A stretch of DNA of 64,000 nt from a virus: the IMG/VR virus record IMGVR_UViG_3300010885_050098, positions 1 to 64,000 of that record. One strand, written 5' to 3'. Positions 1-14,826 of the stretch are shown here, piece by piece. The notes under the pieces are model-generated. The model had not been told where the DNA came from, did not search any database, and saw only the letters and a list, made by a program, of their open reading frames with translations. Position 1 is the stretch's first letter. Every line of letters starts with the position of its first letter. The translations under genes were made by a program, and so were the position numbers.

Positions 1-1048
1 TGTTTGAATCAATAAAGCCATCTACAAGAGTAACCTTTACGGCTGTTCCGCCAGTGTTGTAAGCGTTTTCGTTCTCTACAAGTTCTACGGTCCAAGAGAC
101 GTTGTGTGAAGCGTTATCTGAACCTGTTACGCTAATTGTGTCTCCAACGGTAGGTATAAATGTTCGACCAACTATATACATAATTGATTGGTCGCCATTT
201 AATGACCACCCAGGTAATGTAGCTGTACGGTTAAACCCAGAAATAGGACCTGTTGTACAAACCCCAACATAAGCGTACTTAACAAGGTTTACAGAAGAAC
301 CTGTGTTAACAGTTGTTCCTGCTGCAATTGATTGAGTCTTAATCTTGCCATCGTTAATGGCTGTTGCGCCAGCAGCGTTACCTGCTGTGGTTACTACACC
401 CAGAAGAAGACCTGCGTTATTAAGATCGTATGTAGCCGCTGCTTCTGTTAGGCCTACTACGTTAGGTACTTCTGGAGCGTTATAAGTTTGAACTTGAATA
501 TTAACTTCAACTGAAACTTTTGCACCCGCAGTATTGTTTTGGGCTTGAATTGTTCCATCATTTACAGTAGTTGCACCAGCTCTAGTGGTGTTTACTACTG
601 ATACGGTATTTAAAAACCCTAATGGGCTAAGAATGGCGTTTGCTGCCGTAGTTGTAAGACCTACAATATTTGGCATTATTGCAAAAGTTTCAATACCAGT
701 ATCCCCATCACCAGCGTAGTTAGGCTCGTATGCTGGGTAGTTCTGGTATCCAGTCAATGCTGTGCTGTGGTTGTCTGCTGGAACTGAAACTGTGCGATAA
801 CTTACATCGTCCCAGTTCTTATTAATGCTTTGATCTCCTACTGAAAGGCGTTGTTCAACTGCTGAGTAAAGACCTTCGCTTGGGTAAATGAACGTTGCAT
901 CCCAACCAAAGTTACCTTCGCCGTTAGCGGGGTATAAAAGTTCTGAGCCAGATGTAATAACATCACGTTGGTCATCAGGCTGCATAGCCATGTTGCCCCA
1001 TACAAAATCTACACGTGGGTTCCCTAAGTCATCTACTGGATAGGTCAT
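1..1048 (-). CDS. PASTA-repeat virion-type protein (3' end runs off the window)
   Basis: Hand-translated from ATG 1048: MTYPVDDLGNPRVDFVWGNMAMQPDDQR... with two PASTA-like units (MPNIVGLTTTAANAIL..., VPNVVGLTEAAATYDL...). No stop before position 1, so it is absent from the ORF track. Confidence 0.75.
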   Translation of the reverse strand, partial: MTYPVDDLGNPRVDFVWGNMAMQPDDQRDVITSGSELLYPANGEGNFGWDATFIYPSEGLYSAVEQRLSVGDQSINKNWDDVSYRTVSVPADNHSTALTGYQNYPAYEPNYAGDGDTGIETFAIMPNIVGLTTTAANAILSPLGFLNTVSVVNTTRAGATTVNDGTIQAQNNTAGAKVSVEVNIQVQTYNAPEVPNVVGLTEAAATYDLNNAGLLLGVVTTAGNAAGATAINDGKIKTQSIAAGTTVNTGSSVNLVKYAYVGVCTTGPISGFNRTATLPGWSLNGDQSIMYIVGRTFIPTVGDTISVTGSDNASHNVSWTVELVENENAYNTGGTAVKVTLVDGFIDSN

Positions 1049-1214
1049 TATTTGCCGCCTTTTTGAAAGTTAACTGAAATTACATAATCTTTGCCGCACT
1101 CTTTGCAACCGTTGAAGGCCGCTTTAACAGCGTCAACTGGGGATACGGTCTTGATGTCATCGCTACAAGCGCATGAGATTTTTATTCCTGGGTGTTCGTT
1201 ATATGCTTTCATAA

Positions 1215-1913
1215 TTACAACCAATCTGCTGTTTCAAAGCCTAAGGTGTGTGACTGGAAAACTACAAGGTAGAAGTCGTTCTTATCCGCACTTTGATTAC
1301 CACTCTTATAATTAGGGCTTTCAGAACCATACATTATGGTGCCATCAAAATCTGCTCCGTAATACTTAACGTTATTTGCGTCGTATCCCATATCGCTGCT
1401 TGGATCAATGTAGTAGTAGAAAATTCGACCGCTGTTAGTATCGTAAGTTCCTGTTTCATCATCGTATGAGTTTGCTCCGCCAGTCCACTGTGCATCAGTT
1501 AGCCATGATGCTGGAACACCGCAAGCAATAAGTTCTTTCTTAACTGTCTCTAACTGGTTTTCGCCAAGGCCCCAAGTGTTGCAAAGACCAACAGCAGGCC
1601 AGTAAAAAGATTCCCCATCGTCAAGGGTGCGGCCATCATTAATAAGAATGTTAGTAACAGGATCAGCATCTGTAGTTGGGTATGCGTTCCACTCAGTAAG
1701 AGCAATTGCGTGGCTATCACCAGCGCTTAACTTATGGTAGCTTGACCGGTCTTCATTTGGTTGAAGTGGCATATTGCCAAAAACGTAATCAATTGCGACG
1801 TTTCCATCAACAAGGCCTTCACCAGTAGGGAAGTATCCAGAGCGTACGCTTCCGTCAATTTCAGTAATTACTTGGAAGGACTTCTCTTCCCATTGTTCTC
1901 TATCGTATGACAT
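1215..1913 (-). CDS. Hypothetical protein, paralog of the N-terminal domain of 1..1048
   Basis: IDYVFGNMPLQPNEDR...DSHAIALTEWNAYP aligns with VDFVWGNMAMQPDDQR...DNHSTALTGYQNYP. Confidence 0.7.
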   Translation of the reverse strand: MSYDREQWEEKSFQVITEIDGSVRSGYFPTGEGLVDGNVAIDYVFGNMPLQPNEDRSSYHKLSAGDSHAIALTEWNAYPTTDADPVTNILINDGRTLDDGESFYWPAVGLCNTWGLGENQLETVKKELIACGVPASWLTDAQWTGGANSYDDETGTYDTNSGRIFYYYIDPSSDMGYDANNVKYYGADFDGTIMYGSESPNYKSGNQSADKNDFYLVVFQSHTLGFETADWL

Positions 1914-1972
1914 CGCTGCCCTCTCGTACTAGGTGTCTCTAGTATCCAAGAGGAAGCCAATAATGTCAGCGT

Positions 1973-2239
1973 TTATGCTTCGGCTTTATCCTTGCCCCAG
2001 TTACCAATTGGGCATTCAGCCTCAGCCAACTTAACCTTAAGGTGCATCAAGCAGCCGCACTTCTTACATTGCTGCGTGTACTTGGTCAGGAAAGGGCAGT
2101 CATTACACATGGTTAAACGGGCAGTGGCAACCTCATCAGAAACCCTTTGTTGATCGGTCTTAAACAAATCCCAAGGACGAACGTCCCCTAGATTTTGTTT
2201 ATACTTTTGCCAAAGAGATAGGTTTGATTCGCTATTCAT
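1973..2239 (-). CDS. Small Cys-rich metal-binding protein (DUF6171-like)
   Basis: RLTMCNDCPFL...QCKKCGCLM..KVKLAEAECPIGNW pattern. Confidence 0.65.
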   Translation of the reverse strand: MNSESNLSLWQKYKQNLGDVRPWDLFKTDQQRVSDEVATARLTMCNDCPFLTKYTQQCKKCGCLMHLKVKLAEAECPIGNWGKDKAEA

Positions 2240-2964
2240 TAGTTGTAATCTGGCCCAATCCTGTAGCCCTTTTTATAATGGGCAATATTTACGGTTTCTT
2301 TTTCTGCAGCCAAGTCTATTTTAGACTTAAAGAACTCTGGTGTCCGGTTTTCTATTCCAACCCAAGATTCTCTTTTGATTGGAATTATAGACATTAACGG
2401 AGTACCTGCATGGATTACTCCTTCAAAATTATCTTTAATATGAAAACTTACATTTCCCGGTAGCGGGTAAAGATCGTAATCAACATACCCAGAAACTGTA
2501 GAAAACGGAAGATCGTATCGATTAATCGGGTGAGTTAGAAGAACTCCGTAACCTTCTGGCGGTTGAATACCCCAGTACATCTGCCAAGACCAGTGAGATT
2601 GATAGTGACCGTGGGGAACGGGCATTTCAAATAAACCTCTAGGAGCCACTGGGTGCATGGGTGAATCCCATTTAATATCCGCTGATCCATCGTCTTTTCT
2701 GATGACCGTGATATCGGTGTGAAGTAGGTAGTGATAGCCGGTAGCCATTGCATCAAAATAAGGCATGCAATGTTTTAATCCTAAGTAGATGTTACTTCTG
2801 TCAGAGGTTCCGTTTTTTACGCGTTCTTCGTCGCCCTCACCGTGATAAAGGGGTAAGTCTTTCCAGTAAGGGGCAATATTTTTTTTAGCTGGTAGCGGGC
2901 CAATAGCCCCTTGTGCTGCGCCTTCGCCCCAAGGGTAAAACTCAAGAAGTTGTTTGCTGTCCAC
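2239..2964 (-). CDS. Conserved phage beta-fold protein (DUF6065-like)
   Basis: KHCMPYFDAMATGY, PPEGYGVLLTHPINR, GTPLMSIIPIKRESW motifs. Start reassigned to GTG 2964, which has GGAG 7 nt upstream. Confidence 0.6.
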   Translation of the reverse strand: MDSKQLLEFYPWGEGAAQGAIGPLPAKKNIAPYWKDLPLYHGEGDEERVKNGTSDRSNIYLGLKHCMPYFDAMATGYHYLLHTDITVIRKDDGSADIKWDSPMHPVAPRGLFEMPVPHGHYQSHWSWQMYWGIQPPEGYGVLLTHPINRYDLPFSTVSGYVDYDLYPLPGNVSFHIKDNFEGVIHAGTPLMSIIPIKRESWVGIENRTPEFFKSKIDLAAEKETVNIAHYKKGYRIGPDYN

Positions 2965-4015
2965 GTTTTTTCTCCAATTCGTATAGTTGATGGGCAGCAA
3001 AGTACTTGTCGCCCACCTCTTCCACCGTCTCGTACATTTTTCTATAAATTTCTTTGTAATTAATACCAGATGCTTTTTCGTACTCATCTAGTAGTTCTTG
3101 GTTTGGCGCTCCCCAAATACCTAGAACTTTTCCTGTCAAAATATCTTTATTGCGTAAAGTGCCTTGAATAACCTTATCTCTAAAAGATACCCCATTTTCA
3201 TCTTTTACTTCGTATGTGCTTTTCCAAGAGTTGGGGACATCTCTCCCTTGCGTATACATCTCTCGAGTCCAAAGAACGTGGTCTCGCATGTTAAATATCC
3301 TATACCCTCGAGTCCAAGCACGCAAAGGTGCGGTATTTTCTTCGTGGTAAGTGACTAGGGGATCAAAGGGAATTTCTTCTAAGTACTTAGCGGTTGTAAA
3401 CATAAAGTGACCAGCAAAAACATACTGTTCTTCGTAGTTTGAGTTTTCAAAATTTGCTACTGCTGCAGCGGGACTTTCAACAGCCTCTACCCCATAAACT
3501 AAATTTTTATAGTTTTCTTCATCCATATTTAAAGCCCGTAAGTTTCCTTTAGTTACCAATGACCATATGTGATCGCAAGAATAATTAAAATCGTCGGTAC
3601 CAAACATTGTCAGTGCCTGACCAGTTTTTCTGTCTCTAAACCAATAGGGAACATAAGTTGAGATAATTGGTTTTTCTGTTATTTTTTGTAGCTCTTTATA
3701 GTTTGATTTTAATATTTCATCCCAATTTTGTTTAAACATAGTGTGGGCATCAATTTGCAAATAGTAAGTTTCACCTTCATACAAAGAACACGCTAGATCC
3801 CTAGTAACGCTTGTTCCTAAACCAATGGTTTCTGATATAGCAATTACCTTAACATTTGGGTACATTTTTACATCTGGAAAATTACTTTTTGGGTAATGTA
3901 AAACAAGTCCTATATGAACATTTTGAGGTTGTTTTGCTTTACCAAGAGCCGTTCTTATTGTTTCGTGGATATCTTCTTCATTAAAAGCCGGTATACCGAT
4001 AAAAATAGTTTCCAC
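2942..4015 (-). CDS. GT-A glycosyltransferase, GT60/Gnt1-like (GlcNAc transferase family)
   Basis: TIFIGIPAFNE...TIRTALGKAKQPQNVHIG...YYLQIDAHTMFKQNWD (DxH motif)...HEE...LRAWTRGYRIF. Confidence 0.75.
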   Translation of the reverse strand: METIFIGIPAFNEEDIHETIRTALGKAKQPQNVHIGLVLHYPKSNFPDVKMYPNVKVIAISETIGLGTSVTRDLACSLYEGETYYLQIDAHTMFKQNWDEILKSNYKELQKITEKPIISTYVPYWFRDRKTGQALTMFGTDDFNYSCDHIWSLVTKGNLRALNMDEENYKNLVYGVEAVESPAAAVANFENSNYEEQYVFAGHFMFTTAKYLEEIPFDPLVTYHEENTAPLRAWTRGYRIFNMRDHVLWTREMYTQGRDVPNSWKSTYEVKDENGVSFRDKVIQGTLRNKDILTGKVLGIWGAPNQELLDEYEKASGINYKEIYRKMYETVEEVGDKYFAAHQLYELEKKRGQQTTS

Positions 4016-4030
4016 GCAGTGCTCCCATAA

Positions 4031-5542
4031 TTACATCTTGAAGTTGTGGGTAATAATACCATCTGCTAGGAATAAGTCGTTATCCTCAACGTCAATGTCT
4101 ACAACCATGGTTGCATCGTTAACTTTTACTTTTTTAGTAATAAGGATTTCTTCGTCTGATCCATTCTTAAAGTAATCACCAACCTCAAGTTCGTCTACCT
4201 GAGCAAACTGCCAAGTAAGACCCTTTTTAACAAATACGTAGTGATCTCCAGTTACCTTAAACTGTTCATTTATGTGGTAGAAAGCGCTTTCAATAGTGTG
4301 ACGAACCTTAGTGACAATGGTGTCTTCATACTCAAGGTTTTGAATATTTTCTATAGACCACTTTGACGCTGGGTACCATTGAGAAATATCTTCGCCGTTA
4401 GGATATGTAGGAATAATTGGAGCTTTAAGTACGTCTCCGACTACAACATTTTCAATAGGTTTTGTTAAACCATTTGAAAGAGTAACCCTAGTTCCGTATA
4501 CCCAACAACCACCACCGCCACCATAGTAAGTAACAGAAGTACTAGGGCTGTAATAAATAGGAGCAGCGTAGTAAGTAGGAGCTCTGTAATAAGCAGGTGC
4601 TGCGTAGTAAGTAACAGAGGTGTTAGGGGAGTAATAAACAGGAGCAGCATAGTAAGTAGGAATATAACTATAATAAACTGGAGCAGCATAGTAAGTAGGA
4701 GCAGCGTAATAAGTTACAGATGTATTTGGTGCATAATAAACTGGAGCAGCATAGTAAGTAGGAATATAACTATAATAAACTGGAGCAGCATAGTAAGTAG
4801 GAGCAGCGTAATAAGTTACTGAAGTGTTTGGAGAATAATAAGTAGGAGTAGGTGCAGCGTAATAAGAAATTGTAGCGCCCGGACAATTGCCCGGAAACCC
4901 AGACGCAGGAACGCTATAGCCTAATGATGGACAGTAAGTAAGTGCTTGGGCACAACCGCAAGATGATGCGCAAGAAACTTCTTGAGTACCAGTACCATAA
5001 GAAGTAGAACACACGCTTCCATCTGAATCATAGTAAACGGTAACGGGTCTAGACCACAGCTGACCTCCTTGACAATATAACTCTGTAGTTGTGTTGCTTC
5101 CACCGCTACCGCATACAGGTGTTCCTCCACCCGCATATGCGTAGTAAGTAAAGGACACGCTTTGTTGACCTACGTAAAGTCCAGAACTCGGACTTTGTGA
5201 TGCAACCGTACCGTCTAAAGCAGCGTTAGTAGTAGAGGTACCGCTAGTCCCACCTATTAAATTGCCACTACCTGTAATTGAGTTTGTTGCTTGGGAAACA
5301 GTTAGCCCAACAACATTTGGCACTGTGTAATAACTAATTCCGCCTCCGCCACCATAATATTGCGGTGGTGTGTAGTAGGCGGGAGCAGCGTAATAAGAGG
5401 GCGCGGATGGAGTAAGGAATTGTTTCCACACACCATTAACTTTTACATAACCGTTAGTTACGTTTTTCCAAACGCCATTAACTTTTGTGTAATAGTTAGA
5501 TGTAGTTTTCCATACACCATTAACCTTAACGCTACCAGCCAT
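4031..5542 (-). CDS. Tyr/Pro-repeat PASTA protein with C-terminal Hint (intein-like) autoprocessing domain
   Basis: 3x KVNGVWK, PASTA (TVPNVVGLTVSQA...GTVASQSP), Cys-rich segment, YYAAP repeats, GGGGG|CWVYGTRV (Hint block A), VTGDHY (block B), FLADGIITHN (block G). Confidence 0.8.
   Translation of the reverse strand: MAGSVKVNGVWKTTSNYYTKVNGVWKNVTNGYVKVNGVWKQFLTPSAPSYYAAPAYYTPPQYYGGGGGISYYTVPNVVGLTVSQATNSITGSGNLIGGTSGTSTTNAALDGTVASQSPSSGLYVGQQSVSFTYYAYAGGGTPVCGSGGSNTTTELYCQGGQLWSRPVTVYYDSDGSVCSTSYGTGTQEVSCASSCGCAQALTYCPSLGYSVPASGFPGNCPGATISYYAAPTPTYYSPNTSVTYYAAPTYYAAPVYYSYIPTYYAAPVYYAPNTSVTYYAAPTYYAAPVYYSYIPTYYAAPVYYSPNTSVTYYAAPAYYRAPTYYAAPIYYSPSTSVTYYGGGGGCWVYGTRVTLSNGLTKPIENVVVGDVLKAPIIPTYPNGEDISQWYPASKWSIENIQNLEYEDTIVTKVRHTIESAFYHINEQFKVTGDHYVFVKKGLTWQFAQVDELEVGDYFKNGSDEEILITKKVKVNDATMVVDIDVEDNDLFLADGIITHNFKM
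4641..4819. repeat. Tandem 102-bp (34-aa) coding repeat within the YYAAP array
   Basis: 4641-4717 is repeated at 4743-4819. Unit: YYAAPTYYAAPVYYSYIPTYYAAPVYYxPNTSVT. Confidence 0.85.
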
Positions 5543-5555
5543 TTAAGGTCTCCGA

Positions 5556-5699
5556 CTACGCTGTATATTGAAGCCAGACGTCCCCGTCACGGCCTTGAGT
5601 GATTAGGGGGGCCGCTGTTGAAGTTATAATGTTGCGCTGACCCGAGGTGTTATCAACAAGAATAGTTGATCCGTATACGCGAAACGATTCTCTTCCCAT
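5556..5699 (-). CDS. 47-aa tail-fibre-type motif protein
   Basis: Hand-translated MGRESFRVYGSTILVDNTSGQRNIITSTAAPLITQGRDGDVWLQYTA. The STxAP...GxDGDxWxxY motif is typical of phage fibre proteins. ATG overlaps the upstream stop. Confidence 0.65.
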   Translation of the reverse strand: MGRESFRVYGSTILVDNTSGQRNIITSTAAPLITQGRDGDVWLQYTA

Positions 5700-6037
5700 T
5701 ACTGGACCTCGTATCCACTAACTACTACGTTAATTGCGGTTCCTGCAGAGGCTAATGCCCACAAAGAATCTCCTAAATTAAGTACCTGTGTTAGATCTAA
5801 AGTAATAGTTGAGTTTGCGGAAATAACAACCGCTGGAACAATAACGTTTGAATTTCCCGCAGTTCCCCCAGAAGGAACTAGGTAAAGAGTAATGCTAGCG
5901 CTACCTGCGCTGTAATTTGAAACAAGGATTTGTTTAGTAATTCCAGAGCTGGCTGGCGCTGTAACTGTGTAAAGAGCGGTTGCGGATGTTCCAAGGGTTG
6001 TTGGATCAGTAAAACGCTTTAAGTTGTAATTTGCCAC
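5699..6037 (-). CDS. Small beta-sandwich virion protein
   Basis: ALYTV...ITKQILVSN...ITLYLVPSGGTAG...LNLGDSL...VVSGYE, a common phage structural family. Confidence 0.6.
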   Translation of the reverse strand: MANYNLKRFTDPTTLGTSATALYTVTAPASSGITKQILVSNYSAGSASITLYLVPSGGTAGNSNVIVPAVVISANSTITLDLTQVLNLGDSLWALASAGTAINVVVSGYEVQ

Positions 6038-6320
6038 GGGTGTCCTTTCGAGAACTACTAGTCTATCCTTTAATTAGTTTTGGTGCTCTCCTTGAACACC
6101 TCTACCTGGGTTTGCATATGTAAAAATACTAGGAGACTCTTTTGATGCCCATTTTCTTAAACCAAAACGAGAGTCGTTTTTTGCCGGTGGGGTTTTTGCA
6201 TCCTTTAGGCGAAATTCTTTCTTCCTCATGGCGTCCAGCGATCCCACTGAATAGCGTTGGTTTGTTCACCTTCAACGGCTCCTTTCGCCCTTGTTAGTTC
6301 ATCTCTAAATTCTTTATCTC

Positions 6321-6860
6321 TCACTTAATATTGTCCAAGTTTACCGCACCGTTGCTTGGTCGGTTATCTGGCGCTTTATCGTAGTTAATTGCCCCATTGG
6401 ACTGATTTGGAATTGGTTGACCAGCTCGAACACTAGTGAACTGTTTACCTACGTTTGTTCCACCATTTGCCGCAGCATTAGCCGCTGATTTTTTGCTGTA
6501 AGTTGTGCTTAGAGCAGCACTCTTGCCCCACTCGCCACCAGTAGCTTCTTCTGGAGTAATGTAACCAGCAGAAACGGCTTTTTCTACATCCGAAGTAGTT
6601 GCTTGTTTTCCTGTAACCGGTTTAGGTTTTGGACCATCTTGTACAGCAGCGGGTGTTTCCTCAGAATTACCTTTTGTTTTTTTAAACTGTTGACCTTTAG
6701 TTTTTTTACCAAAATTAAATGTGTAGGTTGCTTTTCCCGGAATACCAGAAAATCCCACGGCATCACCAGTGGATACATTAATTCCAAATGAGCCTTTAGA
6801 TTTACGTTCGTTTTTCCACGTAGCGTAATCTTTTGCTTCTTCGTTCATCGCAAATGCCAT
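6321..6860 (-). CDS. Hypothetical low-complexity protein
   Basis: ORF track; ATG 6860 preferred. Confidence 0.55.
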   Translation of the reverse strand: MAFAMNEEAKDYATWKNERKSKGSFGINVSTGDAVGFSGIPGKATYTFNFGKKTKGQQFKKTKGNSEETPAAVQDGPKPKPVTGKQATTSDVEKAVSAGYITPEEATGGEWGKSAALSTTYSKKSAANAAANGGTNVGKQFTSVRAGQPIPNQSNGAINYDKAPDNRPSNGAVNLDNIK

Positions 6861-6903
6861 ACTGCAATTATCCGTCAGAGAAGGCAAATAAACTTAGTAA
6901 AAG

Positions 6904-6934
6904 TGAGCCGTTTACATGGACAATGCTCAGGTCC
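6904..6934 (-). ncRNA. Candidate H-type pseudoknot (copy 1)
   Basis: GGAC-C-UGAGC-AUU-GUCC-AUGUAAACG-GCUCA, same architecture as 19446-19474. Confidence 0.5.
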
Positions 6935-6968
6935 CTTTGACAGGTAGCGAAACGCTGTCAGTTATATA

Positions 6969-7454
6969 TTACTTGATTTTGATGGTTTTTGCTTTGAGTT
7001 CTTCAGGGATCTCGCGCTCAACCTTAATGGTCAAAAGCCCATCTTTTAGGGTAGCGTCCTTTACCAACATCCACTCGCCCAACACAAACTGTTGAGTCCA
7101 TAGGCGCTTGGCAATTCCCTGATGTAGTACTTCAGAGTCCGTCTTGGTGTCTTTTTCAATGCTCTTAACGGTAAGAACATCTTTTTCTACAGTAACCTCG
7201 ATGTCTTCCTTAGTGTAGCCAGCCAAAGCGACTTCAATCACATAGTGATCATCATCAACCTTAGTTAAGTTATACGGAGGAAATGTTGCCACCTTCATGT
7301 TGGTTAAACCGTTCCAGCGAGAAATTTGATCTTGGAATCCTAAAAAGAATTGATCGCTTAGAACTTGATGAAGACTTGGTAACTTGAGAGGTTCTGGAAG
7401 GCCCTTAGGGTATTTTTCGTTGGGCCACTGAGTGTGTGTATAGCCTGATGCCAT
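6969..7454 (-). CDS. hsp20: Small heat-shock protein Hsp20/IbpA family
   Basis: FPPYNL...YVIEVALAGY...LHQGIAKR...ATLKDGLLTI...IPEELK..IKIK. Confidence 0.95.
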   Translation of the reverse strand: MASGYTHTQWPNEKYPKGLPEPLKLPSLHQVLSDQFFLGFQDQISRWNGLTNMKVATFPPYNLTKVDDDHYVIEVALAGYTKEDIEVTVEKDVLTVKSIEKDTKTDSEVLHQGIAKRLWTQQFVLGEWMLVKDATLKDGLLTIKVEREIPEELKAKTIKIK

Positions 7455-7514
7455 AGTTATATCTCCTTAGACGATATAAGTTAATAGGTCCCGGTTGGCG
7501 ACCTGATAAAAGTA

Positions 7515-7544
7515 TAGCCCACCAGCAAAAATGCTGATGGGCTA
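7515..7544. terminator. Hairpin between endolysin and hsp20
   Basis: TAGCCCACCAGCA-AAAA-TGCTGATGGGCTA; overlaps a minus-strand TATACT -10 at 7511-7516. Confidence 0.55.
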
Positions 7545-7650
7545 TATCTCCCGCGTTTTTAGCGCTCTGACCACCAACATCCGAAGATGGTTAACGCGAC
7601 CAAAGAAGAAAGGAATATTCCCTGGAAAGTCACGTGGGTCAGAAAGTACA

Positions 7651-8397
7651 TTACATAAGCCCCATTAGAGCGGCCCAAGTCTTAGGGCCAACTATTCCAT
7701 TGGAGTCTAGATTTGCATGGTTATCTTGAAACGCAACAACCGCTTTCTTTGTAGCTGGGCCAAAGTCACCATCCTCTAAAAGAGTAAGCGCATGCTGGAT
7801 TACCATTACTGCGTCACCTTTATCACCGGGCTTAACTGTTCCTGGAAATGCTGGGACAATTGGCTTCTCAACTACTGCGTTAACTTCGTTACCCTTGTAA
7901 TTAGGGCGACCAAAGCCTTCGATGAATACAGGAATGCCTTTAGCATTCTTCTTATACGCACGGATCTTTTTACAAGCTTCTCCGCCGTTACGTTCGCTAG
8001 TTGACTTTTTCTTTTCTCCAGCAGTATTACCTTCAACGGTAGTGACGGTTCCATCACCATTGTTCTTGATTACAAGGCCTACATGCTCAATTGGAGCACC
8101 GCCTGCCATGAAGTCAAAGTAAACGATATCGCCTGGCTGTGGATCAGCCTCAGTAGCGTCGGTCCAAGTGCCCATCTTCTTGTAAGAAGCCGCACCAGCC
8201 ATTGTGGAGACCGTATTAGGCATTTTAACGCCCGCTTCGTTTGCACAAAACATGATAAAACTTCCGCACCATGGCAAGAAGTTAGCCTTTGTAAAAGCGC
8301 CATACTTAGTTTCGTTGTCTTTTGGACCTTCTACGTAGCCCACCTCTTTGATTGCAATTTCAACCATCAAAGCGGCTGTGCCTTTTGCTGCTGCCAT
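7651..8397 (-). CDS. Endolysin: CHAP amidase plus peptidoglycan-binding domain
   Basis: PWCGSF (catalytic Cys), PGDIVYF, HVGLV, TVEGNT; C-terminal DGDFGPAT...FQ...NGIVGPKTW (PG_binding_1). Confidence 0.92.
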   Translation of the reverse strand: MAAAKGTAALMVEIAIKEVGYVEGPKDNETKYGAFTKANFLPWCGSFIMFCANEAGVKMPNTVSTMAGAASYKKMGTWTDATEADPQPGDIVYFDFMAGGAPIEHVGLVIKNNGDGTVTTVEGNTAGEKKKSTSERNGGEACKKIRAYKKNAKGIPVFIEGFGRPNYKGNEVNAVVEKPIVPAFPGTVKPGDKGDAVMVIQHALTLLEDGDFGPATKKAVVAFQDNHANLDSNGIVGPKTWAALMGLM

Positions 8398-8777: not shown

Positions 8778-8950
8778 TATTCATCATCCTTTGGGTTGCG
8801 AATCGGATAGGTAACGGCCCATGCAAATAGTGTTCCGACAATTGCGTAGCCAACAATGGTTTTTGCGGAACCATCAAGTACTACCCAAGCAATGAACATT
8901 CCTAGAAGTGTCCACAGTTGATCAATCATGTCTGTTAGTATTTTTTTCAA
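8777..8950 (-). CDS. 57-aa two-TM membrane protein (lysis-associated)
   Basis: Hand-translated (TTG)KKILTDMIDQLWTLLGMFIAWVVLDGSAKTIVGYAIVGTLFAWAVTYPIRNPKDDE; overlaps both neighbours' start/stop codons. Confidence 0.7.
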   Translation of the reverse strand: MKKILTDMIDQLWTLLGMFIAWVVLDGSAKTIVGYAIVGTLFAWAVTYPIRNPKDDE

Positions 8951-11610
8951 GGCTTCCTTCTCCTGACTCCTTTTGTTTCTCCAGACGCGCCTCCGCCTCC
9001 AGAATTTCCTCCACCACTTCCGCCAGAACGACTACCACCTGATGTGGATCCTCCAGCAGCTGCGGCTGCGGCACCAACTGCGTTGATTGCAGCATTACCT
9101 GCAATAACGGCAGCAACTACCATTTTTTGTGCTTCTTCACGTTCTTGTGGGGACATGTCTGCACCAATAGATCCGAGTGCTTGAAGTGCTTGTCCTGGGT
9201 CGCTAAATATTGCGCCAACTAATTCCGATGGGCTCTCTAGTAGAACTAGGGCCGCAGCAACGTCTGCTGTAATTATAACTTCGTTACCCTTTTCATCCTG
9301 CCTAACCTCGACTGGGGTCTCTGGTGGAAGGTCCCCATACTCAATACCAGCGTCTTTAATTTGTTCTTTAGTAAGGGTGTCACCCTCTGCAACAGACTGA
9401 ATAAGGGCTTCGGCTACAAGATCTTTTTCGGCAGCGGTAAGTTTTCCATCAGCCGCTAAAGCATCGGACAGAGAGTTAACTTCTTCTTTACTTACCTCTC
9501 CGTCAGCGTTTAGAGCATCAAGTAACTTCTCACCATCAGCGACAGAGAGTTTTCCGTCCGCTAACAAATCATCTACAGCAGCCGCAACTTCCTCTGCTAC
9601 ACTCGGGGCTTCTACAGGAGGTTCAGGTGAAGGATTTAATTCAGGCTCTGGAGCAGGCTCAGGAGCGGGTTCTTGTTCTGGCTCAGGAGCAGGTTCGGGT
9701 GCTGGGTCTTGCGGCTGCTCAGGTTGAGGCTCTACTACGGGATCAGGAGTAGGTGATGGATCAAGAGAGTCAGGATTTTCAGAAGGTATGGGATCTAGCG
9801 GTAGAGGAGGCTCGTCAGGCTGTGGATCAGTGGTTGGATCAGGGTTCAGAGGAACTTCTGGTGGAACAACTTCTGGAGCAGGAGGACTTGGAACGGGATC
9901 AACTACAGGAGTCGGTTCGCTCGGCTGTTGAGGTTGCTGTGCAGGCGCTGGGGGTGCTGGCGGCACATAAGCTTGAATCGCTTGAACTGCCTGAGACACC
10001 GCAAGAATAGCGTTATCCGCTGATTGATTTGCTGTTGATATTGTTGTTGTAGCAGTTGCTGTGGCAGTTTCTGCGTTGACTGTTGCTGTTGTTAGGTTTG
10101 TGTTGGCAACTGTTAGGTTTTCTTGTGCAACTGTTAAGTTTGCTTGAGCTGTTGTTAAATTTAGTTGTGCGGTTTCATACGCAGCCTGTGCAGCAGCAAT
10201 AGCCTGTGTACCCGCATTTGCAGCGCTCATAGCTGCTGTATAAGAGTCCCAAGCAGCGTTTCTTTCAGCTAGCTTTGAATCATATGCGGCCTGAGCATCT
10301 ACAGCAGCTTGAGCAGTTGTAGGGATAGCAGCTTGTGCGGCTGCTGCGGCAGCGACTAATACTGGGTCTTTAGTTGTAGTTGTTGCACTAAAAGCAGTAG
10401 TTCCCGGATTAGTCCAATAGCCAGTACCGTCAGATCGAGTAATACCCCAACCTAATGTTACGTTAGCGCCACCACCATGTTCGTAGTACCAAAGCACAAA
10501 GTCTTGTTGTTTATCTGTAGTGGTGTTATACGTAGGTGAGTATTGACTCCAAGTAGCGCCTTGGTCTCTCCAGTTATTAATAGCAAGAACACCATCTAAA
10601 TATAGTTTTGCGCCATCATCTGAGTAAACGGCGTATTTAACCGCAACTGCTTCTTCTGGGACAGTAATAGTTCCCTCATATTTAACAATTACATTGTCTA
10701 CTCGTCCTGAATTAAGAACTTGCCCACTTCCCCAGCTAGCTGATATGTAAGGAACTGTTGTTGTTGAAAGTGGTGTTGTTTCTGTTGTAGGTAGTGGTGT
10801 AGCTGTACTTCCACTATATGCGTACGTAGTTGCTTTGACGCCATTAGTTACAACGGTTACTTGAGACGCATCCGCTGCCGCTTGAGCAATGGGTGCTGCA
10901 ATAACTGCCGCATCTGCTGCTGCTTGGGCTGGAGCAATTTGGTCATGCAAAGGGCCTAGTTCAGCGTTTTTGTTATAAAAGTCAACGCAAGCAGATCCCT
11001 GTGTACAAGCAGCATTAGCATCTAAAGCAGGTTGAGCACTCTGTGCTGTAGTTAAAGAAGTTTGAGCATTAGTAACGCTATCCGTCGCTATTGAAACTAC
11101 ATTAGTTTTATCTGCCACTACGGCCGTAGCGCTATCTACAACCGCCTGTGCGGGCGCTACAAGCGCTGTAGCCGCTGTTGCAGCCTGTGCGGATGCTGTT
11201 GCTGTTTCTAATGCGGCAGAGGCTGTGGTAATGGCTGTTTGAGCCGCAGTAATCTGGGTTGCGGCAGAGGTTTCTTGAGCAGGACTCGCAACTTCAATTG
11301 CCGTGTTTAATGTTACAGTAGCCGTCTCAATTTTTTGTGCTACGGAGGTTACTGTTGGAACTACTACTATTGGTGCCGTTTCTGATGGGTTGGGCTGTTG
11401 GTTCGATCCAGTCGTATTATCCTGAGAAGGAGAAGTACCAGAAGTTGTACCAGAATTGGTTAAAGGATCAGGAGAAGATCCAATATCTTGAGTCGGGCCG
11501 CTGGAAACAGGAGTAACTTCATCTGCTTGTGCGGAGGTAGCCAAAGAGAGCGATAGGAATATAATTCCTCCGCTTATTATTAAGTGTAACTTTTTAAAAT
11601 ACCGTCTCAA
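8947..11610 (-). CDS. Large secreted/surface protein with PA14 domain, Ala/Thr coiled coil and Pro-rich stalk
   Basis: Signal peptide ending AQA|DE; PA14 motifs (SDDGAKLYLDG, NNWRDQG, YYEHGGGA); PEPAPEP stalk; ADGKLS repeats; C-terminal hydrophobic segment and RRRKP. Confidence 0.8.
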   Translation of the reverse strand: MRRYFKKLHLIISGGIIFLSLSLATSAQADEVTPVSSGPTQDIGSSPDPLTNSGTTSGTSPSQDNTTGSNQQPNPSETAPIVVVPTVTSVAQKIETATVTLNTAIEVASPAQETSAATQITAAQTAITTASAALETATASAQAATAATALVAPAQAVVDSATAVVADKTNVVSIATDSVTNAQTSLTTAQSAQPALDANAACTQGSACVDFYNKNAELGPLHDQIAPAQAAADAAVIAAPIAQAAADASQVTVVTNGVKATTYAYSGSTATPLPTTETTPLSTTTVPYISASWGSGQVLNSGRVDNVIVKYEGTITVPEEAVAVKYAVYSDDGAKLYLDGVLAINNWRDQGATWSQYSPTYNTTTDKQQDFVLWYYEHGGGANVTLGWGITRSDGTGYWTNPGTTAFSATTTTKDPVLVAAAAAAQAAIPTTAQAAVDAQAAYDSKLAERNAAWDSYTAAMSAANAGTQAIAAAQAAYETAQLNLTTAQANLTVAQENLTVANTNLTTATVNAETATATATTTISTANQSADNAILAVSQAVQAIQAYVPPAPPAPAQQPQQPSEPTPVVDPVPSPPAPEVVPPEVPLNPDPTTDPQPDEPPLPLDPIPSENPDSLDPSPTPDPVVEPQPEQPQDPAPEPAPEPEQEPAPEPAPEPELNPSPEPPVEAPSVAEEVAAAVDDLLADGKLSVADGEKLLDALNADGEVSKEEVNSLSDALAADGKLTAAEKDLVAEALIQSVAEGDTLTKEQIKDAGIEYGDLPPETPVEVRQDEKGNEVIITADVAAALVLLESPSELVGAIFSDPGQALQALGSIGADMSPQEREEAQKMVVAAVIAGNAAINAVGAAAAAAGGSTSGGSRSGGSGGGNSGGGGASGETKGVRRRKP

Positions 11611-14062: not shown

Positions 14063-14084
14063 GGAATACAGGGTAGAGCATTTG

Positions 14085-14155
14085 CTCCCAGACATGGACT
14101 CGAACCACGATTAGATGCTCCAGAGGCACCCGTCCTGCCATTAGACGATCTGGGA
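14085..14155 (-). tRNA. tRNA-Gln(CTG)
   Basis: TCCCAGA/TCTGGGA acceptor stem, GGTGC-CTCTGGA-GCATC anticodon arm, GTTCGAGTC T-loop; no encoded CCA. Confidence 0.92.
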
Positions 14156-14732: not shown

Positions 14733-14753
14733 TTACTTCTCCTTTTTCTTGGG

Positions 14754-14826
14754 CTGTCCCACTTGGGCTCGAACCAAGGACCTAGCGATTAACAGTCGCT
14801 CGCTCTGCCAACTGAGCTATGGGACA
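14754..14826 (-). tRNA. tRNA-Asn(GTT)
   Basis: TGTCCCA/TGGGACA acceptor, AGCTCAGTTGGCAGAGC D-arm, AGCGA-CTGTTAA-TCGCT anticodon arm, GGTTCGAGCC; no encoded CCA. Confidence 0.95.

Follow-up and report, generated by a model that had tools for sequence, protein, structure and literature searches.

The virus record IMGVR_UViG_3300010885_050098 of IMG/VR is a single contig of 76,357 bp, the first 64 kb of which (positions 1 to 64,000) form the stretch of DNA that we have analysed and refer to below as the window. The genome encodes baseplate wedge and hub proteins, a ribonucleotide reductase, a family-A DNA polymerase, helicases and a DpdA-like transglycosylase; the phage is a freshwater, myovirus-like one, and the window sequence is also present in freshwater metagenomes of several studies. 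Our subject is a run of minus-strand genes in the window, consisting of p112, p47, the gene for a 503-residue fibre-like repeat protein that ends in a Hint domain, and three genes designated GT, C and D, which encode a glycosyltransferase (GT), a protein of the DUF6065 superfamily and a six-cysteine mini-protein, respectively. The run is packed tightly, with gaps or overlaps of 1 to 23 nucleotides, and its genes are translationally coupled. An earlier note on this DNA had proposed that the Hint domain of the repeat protein and its glycosylation by the adjoining enzymes make up one integrated system, and the comparisons described here bear on both halves of that proposal.

The features of the run are collected in Table 1. 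The KVNGVWK copies, PASTA domain, Cys-rich part, YY-x-x-P repeats, YYGGGGG stretch, Cys346 and HN-FKM ending that the earlier note had recognized in the 503-residue protein were all found where it had placed them. The gene can be taken as real because full-length homologues exist, at 40-87% identity, in which G345, C346, T431, H434, H499 and N500 are invariant (17/17 in an alignment of 17 relatives). Copies of KVNGVWK start at residues 6, 20 and 34, and the AlphaFold2 (AF2) model predicts six short strands for the module at low confidence; K-x-x-G-x-W repeats of a similar kind are encoded in three of the loci compared below (L004, L123 and L149), and the module is probably the virion-attachment end of the protein. 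The repeat array (residues 227-340) holds 18 YY dipeptides, 10 of which belong to YY-x-x-P motifs, and 13 such motifs occur in the protein as a whole. Its units combine into a super-repeat of 34 residues (6+6+7+6+9), which at the DNA level appears as a repeat with a period of 102 nucleotides, 2.5 copies and 87% matches (score 399). S-P-N-T-S-V-T inserts recur in the protein, and a Ser/Thr-rich stretch occupies residues 96-120. The predicted local distance difference test score (pLDDT) of the array is ~25, so the model gives no structural information on the repeat. In most relatives three to five Gly residues stand directly before Cys1. Gene context and PHROG labels suggest that the 503-residue protein is a virion protein of the tail-fibre type, and a PHROG annotated as "virion structural protein" has the C-terminal Hint domain in common with it. 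A strain contig that is ~95% identical to the window, from another study's freshwater metagenome (depth ~50), lacks 295 nucleotides of the YY array (4579-4875) and has 4 different letters in their place, the mark of a shorter repeat allele or else of a collapsed assembly.

Table 1. Positions in the window of the genes of the run and of the parts of the 503-residue protein
Feature	Position	Strand	Basis and remarks
Fibre-like repeat protein with C-terminal Hint, 503 aa	4031..5542	-	Open reading frame (ORF) list, Pfam, PHROG, homologues
KVNGVWK x3 module, residues 1-42	5417..5542	-	phrog_25859, 3e-11; conserved N-terminally in most relatives
PASTA domain, residues 72-121	5180..5329	-	PF03793, 26.9 bits vs cut-off 23.2
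8-Cys beta domain, residues 144-220	4883..5113	-	Eight Cys; AF2 beta strands, pLDDT 60-75
Tyr/Pro hexapeptide repeat array, residues 227-340	4523..4864	-	YY-x-x-P-x units
Gly5 linker, residues 341-345	4508..4522	-	YYGGGGG is 339-345; Gly345 is the residue that would be acylated
Hint domain of A-type bacterial intein-like (BIL) kind, residues 346-500	4043..4507	-	Cys346, T431-x-x-H434, H499-N500
F-K-M tail after Asn500, three residues	4034..4042	-	Lys502 is a conserved feature
GT, GT-A glycosyltransferase	2942..4015	-	PF11397 GlcNAc (family of Skp1 Gnt1 / CAZy GT60), 90.4 bits vs cut-off 21, 2e-25
C, DUF6065-superfamily protein, 241 aa	2239..2964	-	Likely start GTG 2964 behind GGAG
D, DUF6171-like 6-Cys mini-protein, 88 aa	1973..2239	-	C-x2-C-x9-C-x2-C-G-C-x12-C-P; 1-nt overlap with C
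p112, small conserved protein	5699..6037	-	phrog_1276, function unknown; directly upstream of the fibre gene
p47, 47-aa ORF	5556..5699	-	1-nt overlap with p112

The Hint domain, whose Cys346 is encoded at 4505-4507, is 155 residues long and contains no homing endonuclease. It scores 22.9-27.7 bits with the Pfam family Intein_splicing, below the cut-off of 35.8, and no Pfam Hint family reaches its threshold; its assignment to the Hint superfamily is based on profile comparison with PDB sequences and on predicted fold, not on Pfam score. The Hint profile matches BIL2 (6Y75 at 9e-16; 6Y75 and 6TMM at ~1e-15) and the Clostridium thermocellum BIL 2LWY (7.5e-11) ahead of all inteins. In the AF2 model the pLDDT is 83-95 across residues 350-500 and 70 for the block 341-350, and Foldseek with this model gives 49 matches at E <= 1e-3 in the order BIL2, 2LWY, inteins and Hedgehog 1AT0 (6Y75 at 9e-10 with a template modelling (TM) score of 0.77; 2LWY with a TM score of 0.84 and a root-mean-square deviation (rmsd) of 2.1). 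The relatives in our Hint alignments span 30-90% identity and differ widely in their N-flanks, and conservation is highest at the catalytic residues. In a second alignment, which takes 17 Hint regions from viral contigs, column identity averages 37%; no columns but those of H-N are invariant, and Cys1 and the block-B His come close to it, the sole exception at Cys1 being the truncated row of L148. Lys or Arg stands at the second position after H-N in 14/17 sequences of the first alignment and in 11/17 of the terminal Hints from viral contigs, a further 3/17 of which have Lys at the first. This conserved basic residue is compatible with a reaction that is resolved by an amine, and proves nothing.

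A-type BIL domains are defined by a conserved His-Asn, the lack of a nucleophile at +1 and a variable host protein (PMC7765530). The window domain has a His-Asn ending, no +1 nucleophile and a variable, non-housekeeping host protein, and its autocleavage or splicing is predicted. It also resembles the described A-type BILs (Amitai 2003; Dassa 2004; C. thermocellum 2LWY) in its fold of ~155 residues without an endonuclease, whereas those were found on bacterial secreted or variable proteins and the window clade is terminal on phage fibre-like proteins, with a Gly linker and an H-N-x-K end. A canonical intein was rejected, the +1 residue being Phe and only three residues following Asn500. So was a Hog domain of the Hedgehog type: the Gly-Cys junction is similar, but the protein ends three residues past H-N, which leaves no sterol-recognition region. 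A published study (Dassa 2004) deals with splicing and auto-cleavage by BIL domains without a +1 nucleophile.

A related Hint clade was seen in 44 loci (L016-L060), inside proteins of ~437 residues with the pattern ...YDGNS-x-A-L-Cys ... T-H-N-K-G-G-N-S-H and a C-flank of 100-107 residues; the +1 residue is Lys in 44/44, and around these loci GT, C, D and oxygenase genes are absent by our local profiles.

As the earlier note had it, a transferase of the GT60/Gnt1 type is tightly coupled to the repeat protein: GT starts 15 nucleotides past the stop of the Hint gene, with GGAG ahead of it. It also matches phrog_24687, a glycosyltransferase, and carries the metal motif Q-I-D89-A-H91 (D-x-H); D89, H91, W98, D99 and E226 are invariant in both of our GT alignments. 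The "small Cys-rich protein" of the note proved to be the DUF6171-like protein D, which scores 24.3 bits with DUF6171 (PF19668; cut-off 27, E 4e-5), matches phrog_13558 at 7e-16, has an Atlas score of 0.94 to DUF6171 clusters and keeps its six Cys residues invariant. In L094 (8609-10051) a PF11397 glycosyltransferase (residues 9-269) is fused to a D-type domain (411-473), and in L082 (3242-4240) a D-type domain is fused to a Sulfotransfer_2-like domain (20.6 bits vs cut-off 22, with the whole profile aligned); judging by these two fusions, D looks like an accessory module common to group-transfer enzymes.

The ORF of C spans 2239-3087, and from its likely start the gene overlaps GT by 23 nucleotides. 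The label "DUF6065-like" that had been given to C holds by way of its homologues and not for the protein itself: 17/57 aligned homologues match DUF6065 (PF19541; best 1.7e-10), and C has no Pfam match even at E 10. Clear DUF6065 paralogues (1e-32 to 1e-41) lie beside C-family genes in L006 and L150, and C reaches an Atlas score of 0.98 to clusters whose members carry DUF6065 in only 12-21% of cases; the family as a whole amounts to 1255 representative clusters at 50% identity. The AF2 model of C (pLDDT 94) aligns over 127 residues with the dUTPase of African swine fever virus (6KZ6; VIA Z 9.1, rmsd 2.9), the top 22 VIA rows are all dUTPases, dCTP deaminases or viral dUTPase-like proteins, and Foldseek returns dUTPases only, weakly. 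By its model, then, C has a dUTPase-like beta-barrel fold; searches against PDB sequences with the single sequence and with the profile gave no match, and no dUTPase. K64-x-C66 is invariant in the family. A G-[IV]-V-D-x-D stretch resembles what we take to be motif III of dUTPases, and is a lead only. A role of C as a hydroxylase was rejected, the fold being dUTPase-like and not that of a cupin or a 2-oxoglutarate (2OG) oxygenase.

The co-occurrence of the four genes, which the earlier note had suggested checking, was examined in viral loci by three scans, centred on Hint (60 loci, 16 of them with a terminal Hint), on GT (79 loci, from an alignment of 8 sequences) and on C (79 loci). Among the 60 Hint-centred loci there are five PF11397 glycosyltransferase genes, and all five lie directly after a terminal Hint (L001, L002, L003, L005 and L009). 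Oxygenases of the prolyl-hydroxylase type (PF13640) lie downstream of terminal-Hint genes in L004, L006/7, L008 and L010/11, and every 2OG oxygenase gene in the 60 loci but one is so placed, the exception lying 5 kb upstream in L008. The terminal-Hint proteins with such neighbours carry a short Pro-containing repeat before the Gly linker (YYAAP, SPVGV, YVPPP, IIATP or FSVFSFTP). When near-identical loci are merged into lineages, by a grouping of our own, a GT or oxygenase gene lies within ~4.5 kb in 9/10 lineages with a Pro-containing short repeat and in 0/3 without one (L014, L015 and L028), for which Fisher's test, calculated by hand and with relatedness ignored, gives p ~0.014.

The GT-centred scan points the same way. 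For the glycosyltransferases closest to that of the window (31-79% identity by tblastn), a short-repeat protein is encoded just upstream in 14/14 loci, which represent 12 distinct contigs. Six loci (L141, L142, L152, L143, L149 and L151) have the order D-GT-C beside proteins with 8-15 copies of YYAAPQ or YYAPPV that end in a Cys knot and have no Hint domain; the contig of L143 ends inside the C gene, and in L141, L142, L149 and L151 an ORF of ~150 residues, to which nothing in the window genome corresponds, separates D from the repeat protein. The gene order changes from GT-C-D to D-GT-C between the Hint and Cys-knot loci and the N-terminal domains differ, and the adjacency of GT and repeat is kept. 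The 79 C-centred loci contain oxygenases in 36 cases, D in 26, GT in 25 and a Hint protein in 11, and collagen-like or aromatic/Pro repeat proteins are often encoded nearby. Because the same set of enzymes adjoins YYAAP-type proteins that have no Hint, we regard GT, C and D as linked, in these comparisons, to the repeat and not to the Hint domain, which would be one of at least two interchangeable C-terminal endings. The suggestion that the repeat protein is a substrate of the enzymes encoded beside it is thereby strengthened as far as the enzymes and the repeat are concerned and loses the Hint domain as a partner, and the integrated Hint-plus-glycosylation system of the earlier note has to be given up.

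In L006 (1632-6944) a (YVPPP)n-Gly-Hint protein is followed by a row of eight genes, encoding a JmjC-like cupin, three PF13640 oxygenases, one unknown protein, one C-family protein and two clear DUF6065 proteins (1e-38 and 1e-41). In L008 (10690-11442) the gene immediately following that of an (IIATP)n-Gly-Hint protein is APS-kinase-like (PF01583, 3e-17), and a 2OG oxygenase gene lies ~1 kb beyond it; this gene and the sulfotransferase-like domain of L082 hint at sulfation in some cassettes.

The reading that we prefer, with a probability of roughly 0.5, is that the fibre-type protein trims or re-caps its own Gly5 end by means of its BIL-type Hint domain, and that its Tyr/Pro repeat region is the probable target of the GT/DUF6065/DUF6171 cassette. 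The protein would be laid out as an N-terminal anchor, a PASTA domain, a Cys-rich domain, an array of YY-x-x-P-x units of ~115 residues, Gly5 and an A-type-BIL-like Hint. After translation the Hint domain would, by the chemistry of its family, carry out an N-S acyl shift at Gly345-Cys346 and then remove itself. Hydrolysis of the thioester would leave a Gly5 end; the other outcome would be its resolution by an amine, which might be the side chain of Lys502 or the alpha-amine of F-K-M as freed by cyclisation of Asn500. Independently of the Hint domain, GT, C and D would serve as a tailoring cassette, acting most likely on the Tyr/Pro repeat region or on Ser/Thr-rich segments that adjoin it. Fibre glycosylation appears to be the likeliest role of GT because the enzyme genes keep a conserved neighbourhood with this type of repeat protein.

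The chemistry of the modification can be narrowed by comparison with known systems. In the Skp1 pathway of Dictyostelium and Toxoplasma, the prolyl 4-hydroxylase PhyA acts first and Gnt1 (GT60) then acts on the hydroxyproline (Hyp). The likeness to the window cassette lies in the PF11397 family of GT and in sister phage cassettes that pair such a GT with PF13640 oxygenases and Pro-rich repeats, but the Skp1 pathway modifies a single Pro and not a repeat array, has no counterpart of C and D, and includes an oxygenase, none of which was detected in the window genome. Indeed, no 2OG oxygenase was found among the ORFs of the 76-kb genome with a local profile at E <= 1, so that a route through Hyp and N-acetylglucosamine (GlcNAc) of the Skp1 or extensin kind would lack its first enzyme here, and Hyp-GlcNAc in the window phage is not supported by the gene content. 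The extensin comparison of the earlier note fails on this account and on the absence of Ser-Pro(n) runs from the window protein; extensins have Ser-Pro(3-5) motifs with hydroxylation and arabinosylation, as against YY-x-x-P-x, and the likeness is one of composition only.

Several considerations weigh against the preferred reading. Its support is entirely computational, and gene context and PHROG labels are all that places the 503-residue protein on the virion. The aquatic phages that supplied the linked loci are related to one another, so that the linkage counts are of non-independent events. The YYAAPQ core of the closest Hint-less relatives contains no Ser or Thr, and the acceptor there would be Tyr or hydroxy-Pro; Tyr is, to our knowledge, an unprecedented acceptor for the PF11397 family, and hydroxy-Pro would call for a hydroxylase, none of which has been detected in the genome. 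In the window protein the S-P-N-T-S-V-T inserts and the Ser/Thr-rich stretch at 96-120 would offer other acceptors. The preferred reading assigns no definite role to the dUTPase-fold protein C. For GT homologues at a greater distance (25-29% identity, ~65 loci) the neighbourhood contains no repeat protein, and Iyer et al. 2010 (PMC2938197) interpreted gene clusters of related phages as secondary-metabolite machinery, the case in point being the tandem dioxygenase array of the Synechococcus phage Syn9.

These last two points also speak for the best of the alternatives, which is that GT, C and D are accessory genes in a variable fibre region that act elsewhere, on the host envelope, on a small molecule or peptide, or on nucleotides or DNA, and that the fibre is unmodified and only trims its Hint domain. 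Such a view would accommodate the nucleotide-enzyme fold of C and the presence of C-family genes in more than 590 viral stretches, mostly without a Hint protein. The related cyanophage arrays, read as tailoring metabolites or peptides, include a protein described as having a dUTPase fold and a conserved cysteine (Iyer et al. 2010, PMC2938197), which fits the C family with its invariant C66, a likeness drawn from the published description; the available passages of PMC2938197 draw no link between the Syn9 array and a fibre repeat protein, and the word "glycosyltransferase" is absent from that paper. The accessory-gene view is less easily reconciled with the adjacency of GT and repeat, which survives a change of gene order, the exchange of Hint for Cys knot and differing N-terminal domains, with the protein-glycosylating character of PF11397, and with the 2OG genes of the sister cassettes, which are of the prolyl-hydroxylase Pfam type (PF13640) and not of the Tet/JBP type. 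We regard it as rather unlikely, and as the alternative to be taken most seriously.

A second alternative concerns the Hint domain, which might act as a ligase and pass the Gly345 thioester to a lysine or other amine on another molecule (a virion partner, a neighbouring fibre subunit or the host envelope), in the manner of ubiquitin without E1 or E2. Among solved structures, BIL2 of Tetrahymena thermophila is the nearest in both profile and fold, and it reportedly makes an isopeptide with Lys and couples its N-flank to other proteins with no need of ATP (PMC8616854). For this reason the expectation, put forward earlier, that Phe at +1 would permit only cleavage is too narrow. BIL2, from the BUBL1 polyubiquitin-like locus (PDB 6TMM, 6Y75), shares with the window domain Cys1, the block-B His, a terminal His-Asn, a Gly-ending N-flank and the lack of Cys, Ser or Thr at +1, and uses lysine as the resolving nucleophile (PMC8616854); it differs in being placed between two ubiquitin-like domains in a eukaryote, whereas here the N-flank is a phage fibre, the C-flank has three residues and the activity is a predicted one. 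The Gly-rich C-terminus that would result is reminiscent of ubiquitin, and conservation extends to a Lys one or two positions past H-N. That Lys is part of the protein's own three-residue tail, however, which favours a reaction within the molecule. No candidate acceptor can be pointed to; with the N-terminal module as the apparent anchor, the Gly end is probably a free distal tip, and relatives with the same repeat and enzymes have a Cys knot in the place of the Hint domain. Ligation to another molecule thus seems quite improbable to us. The same low standing belongs to a combined scheme, in which the GT60-type enzyme and its six-Cys and dUTPase-fold helpers would glycosylate Tyr or unhydroxylated residues of the repeat and the Hint domain would, like BIL2 and without ATP, join Gly345 by an isopeptide bond to a lysine, which might be Lys502 of its own tail or a lysine or amine of another fibre subunit or of the host wall.

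Least probable is that the Hint domain does not process itself and is retained by the mature fibre, as a tip with a structural or receptor-binding function, since its catalytic residues are the most conserved positions of a domain that otherwise averages 37% column identity, even if some related (TPFGF)n proteins show that a non-catalytic cap exists in the class. These FN3-like (TPFGF)n proteins (L077:2984-4291, L086:672-1958, L090:2876-4165 and L106:2986-4317) carry a degenerate Hint without Cys1 that ends in H-D-S and not H-N and looks like an inactivated cap; their genes are followed by two C-family genes and by oxygenase genes.

Self-trimming and decoration of a fibre, as in the preferred reading, each have parallels among viruses. 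Virus-encoded tailoring of structural proteins is represented by the prolyl 4-hydroxylase and Pro-rich repeats of PBCV-1, the collagen hydroxylase/glycosyltransferase of Mimivirus and the glycosylation of mycobacteriophage virions. As in the window, these viruses encode a repetitive structural protein together with its would-be decorating enzymes, but the enzyme families and the chemistry of the repeats are others and there is no Hint cap. The intramolecular chaperone domains of Peptidase S74 are likewise C-terminal and remove themselves from phage tail spikes and fibres, by means of a Ser-Lys dyad protease; fold and chemistry are unrelated to those of the Hint thioester, and the analogy is one of function only.

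In L001, L005 and L148 a homologue of p112 is encoded immediately ahead of a Hint-capped fibre gene, and p47 is 84% identical to its counterpart in L001 and matches the C-terminal end of a tail-fibre PHROG weakly (E 0.003). A scan of 1000-7600 found promoter and terminator sites no more numerous than in shuffled sequences, except for a strong terminator-like hairpin at 7513-7546, upstream of the fibre block and between the ORFs 6969-7454 and 7651-8397. One metatranscriptome run contains two short identical contigs, at 5232-5382 and 5586-5699, by which transcription is not demonstrated; in the low-depth sequencing runs gaps in cover carry no meaning. The ORFs that flank the hairpin, just upstream of the fibre block, were judged by eye: 6969-7454 (minus strand, 161 residues) is small heat-shock protein-like and is kept in L001, and 7651-8397 (minus strand, 248 residues) is CHAP-type lysin-like and is kept in L001 and L002. 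Downstream of D, the minus-strand ORFs 1215-1913 and 2-1048 have in common the N-terminal motif V-D-F/Y-V-W/F-G-N-M-x-x-Q-P, which is also carried by the gene after the cassette in L151; ORF 2-1048 has two PASTA domains and runs off the start of the contig, and both are probably further fibre or receptor-binding proteins. An 887-residue protein (8947-11610, minus strand) has a signal-like N-terminus, Ala/Thr-rich repeats, a Pro-rich stretch, a segment that is PA14-like by eye only and a Gly-rich C-terminus ending ...R-R-R-K-P; Gly-rich, Arg-ending tails of this kind also occur in ORFs near C-family genes in L068, L069 and L121. Genes for tRNA-Gln (CTG; 14084-14155) and tRNA-Asn (GTT; 14752-14826) lie on the minus strand.

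A blastn search of the region against 50,697 phage records gave no match, and a tblastn search with the 503-residue protein gave a single weak one, the "large intein domain protein" of phage NCTB. An alignment of the protein, when scanned against 185,579 bacterial and archaeal species genomes, found no relative, and hence gives no clue to a host or a prophage. Our literature searches found no paper on a Hint-capped phage fibre ("Hint domain" with tail fiber and phage gave intein reports only), none for DUF6065, DUF6171, PF19541 or PF19668, and nothing relevant on GT60 in phages.

Aquatic phages carry very many unexplained oxygenase, glycosyltransferase, DUF6065 and DUF6171 genes. If such genes decorate the phage's own fibres, an annotation gap would be closed and host recognition by uncultured phages would gain a chemical layer, and for this question the window is an unusually small test case, with one substrate gene and three enzyme genes and no oxygenase array. 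Should glycosylation of Tyr or of the repeat and ligation by the Hint domain both prove true, the outcome would be a fibre tip that is covalently stapled or that adsorbs covalently. A Gly-Hint module that removes or ligates itself could also serve in protein engineering.

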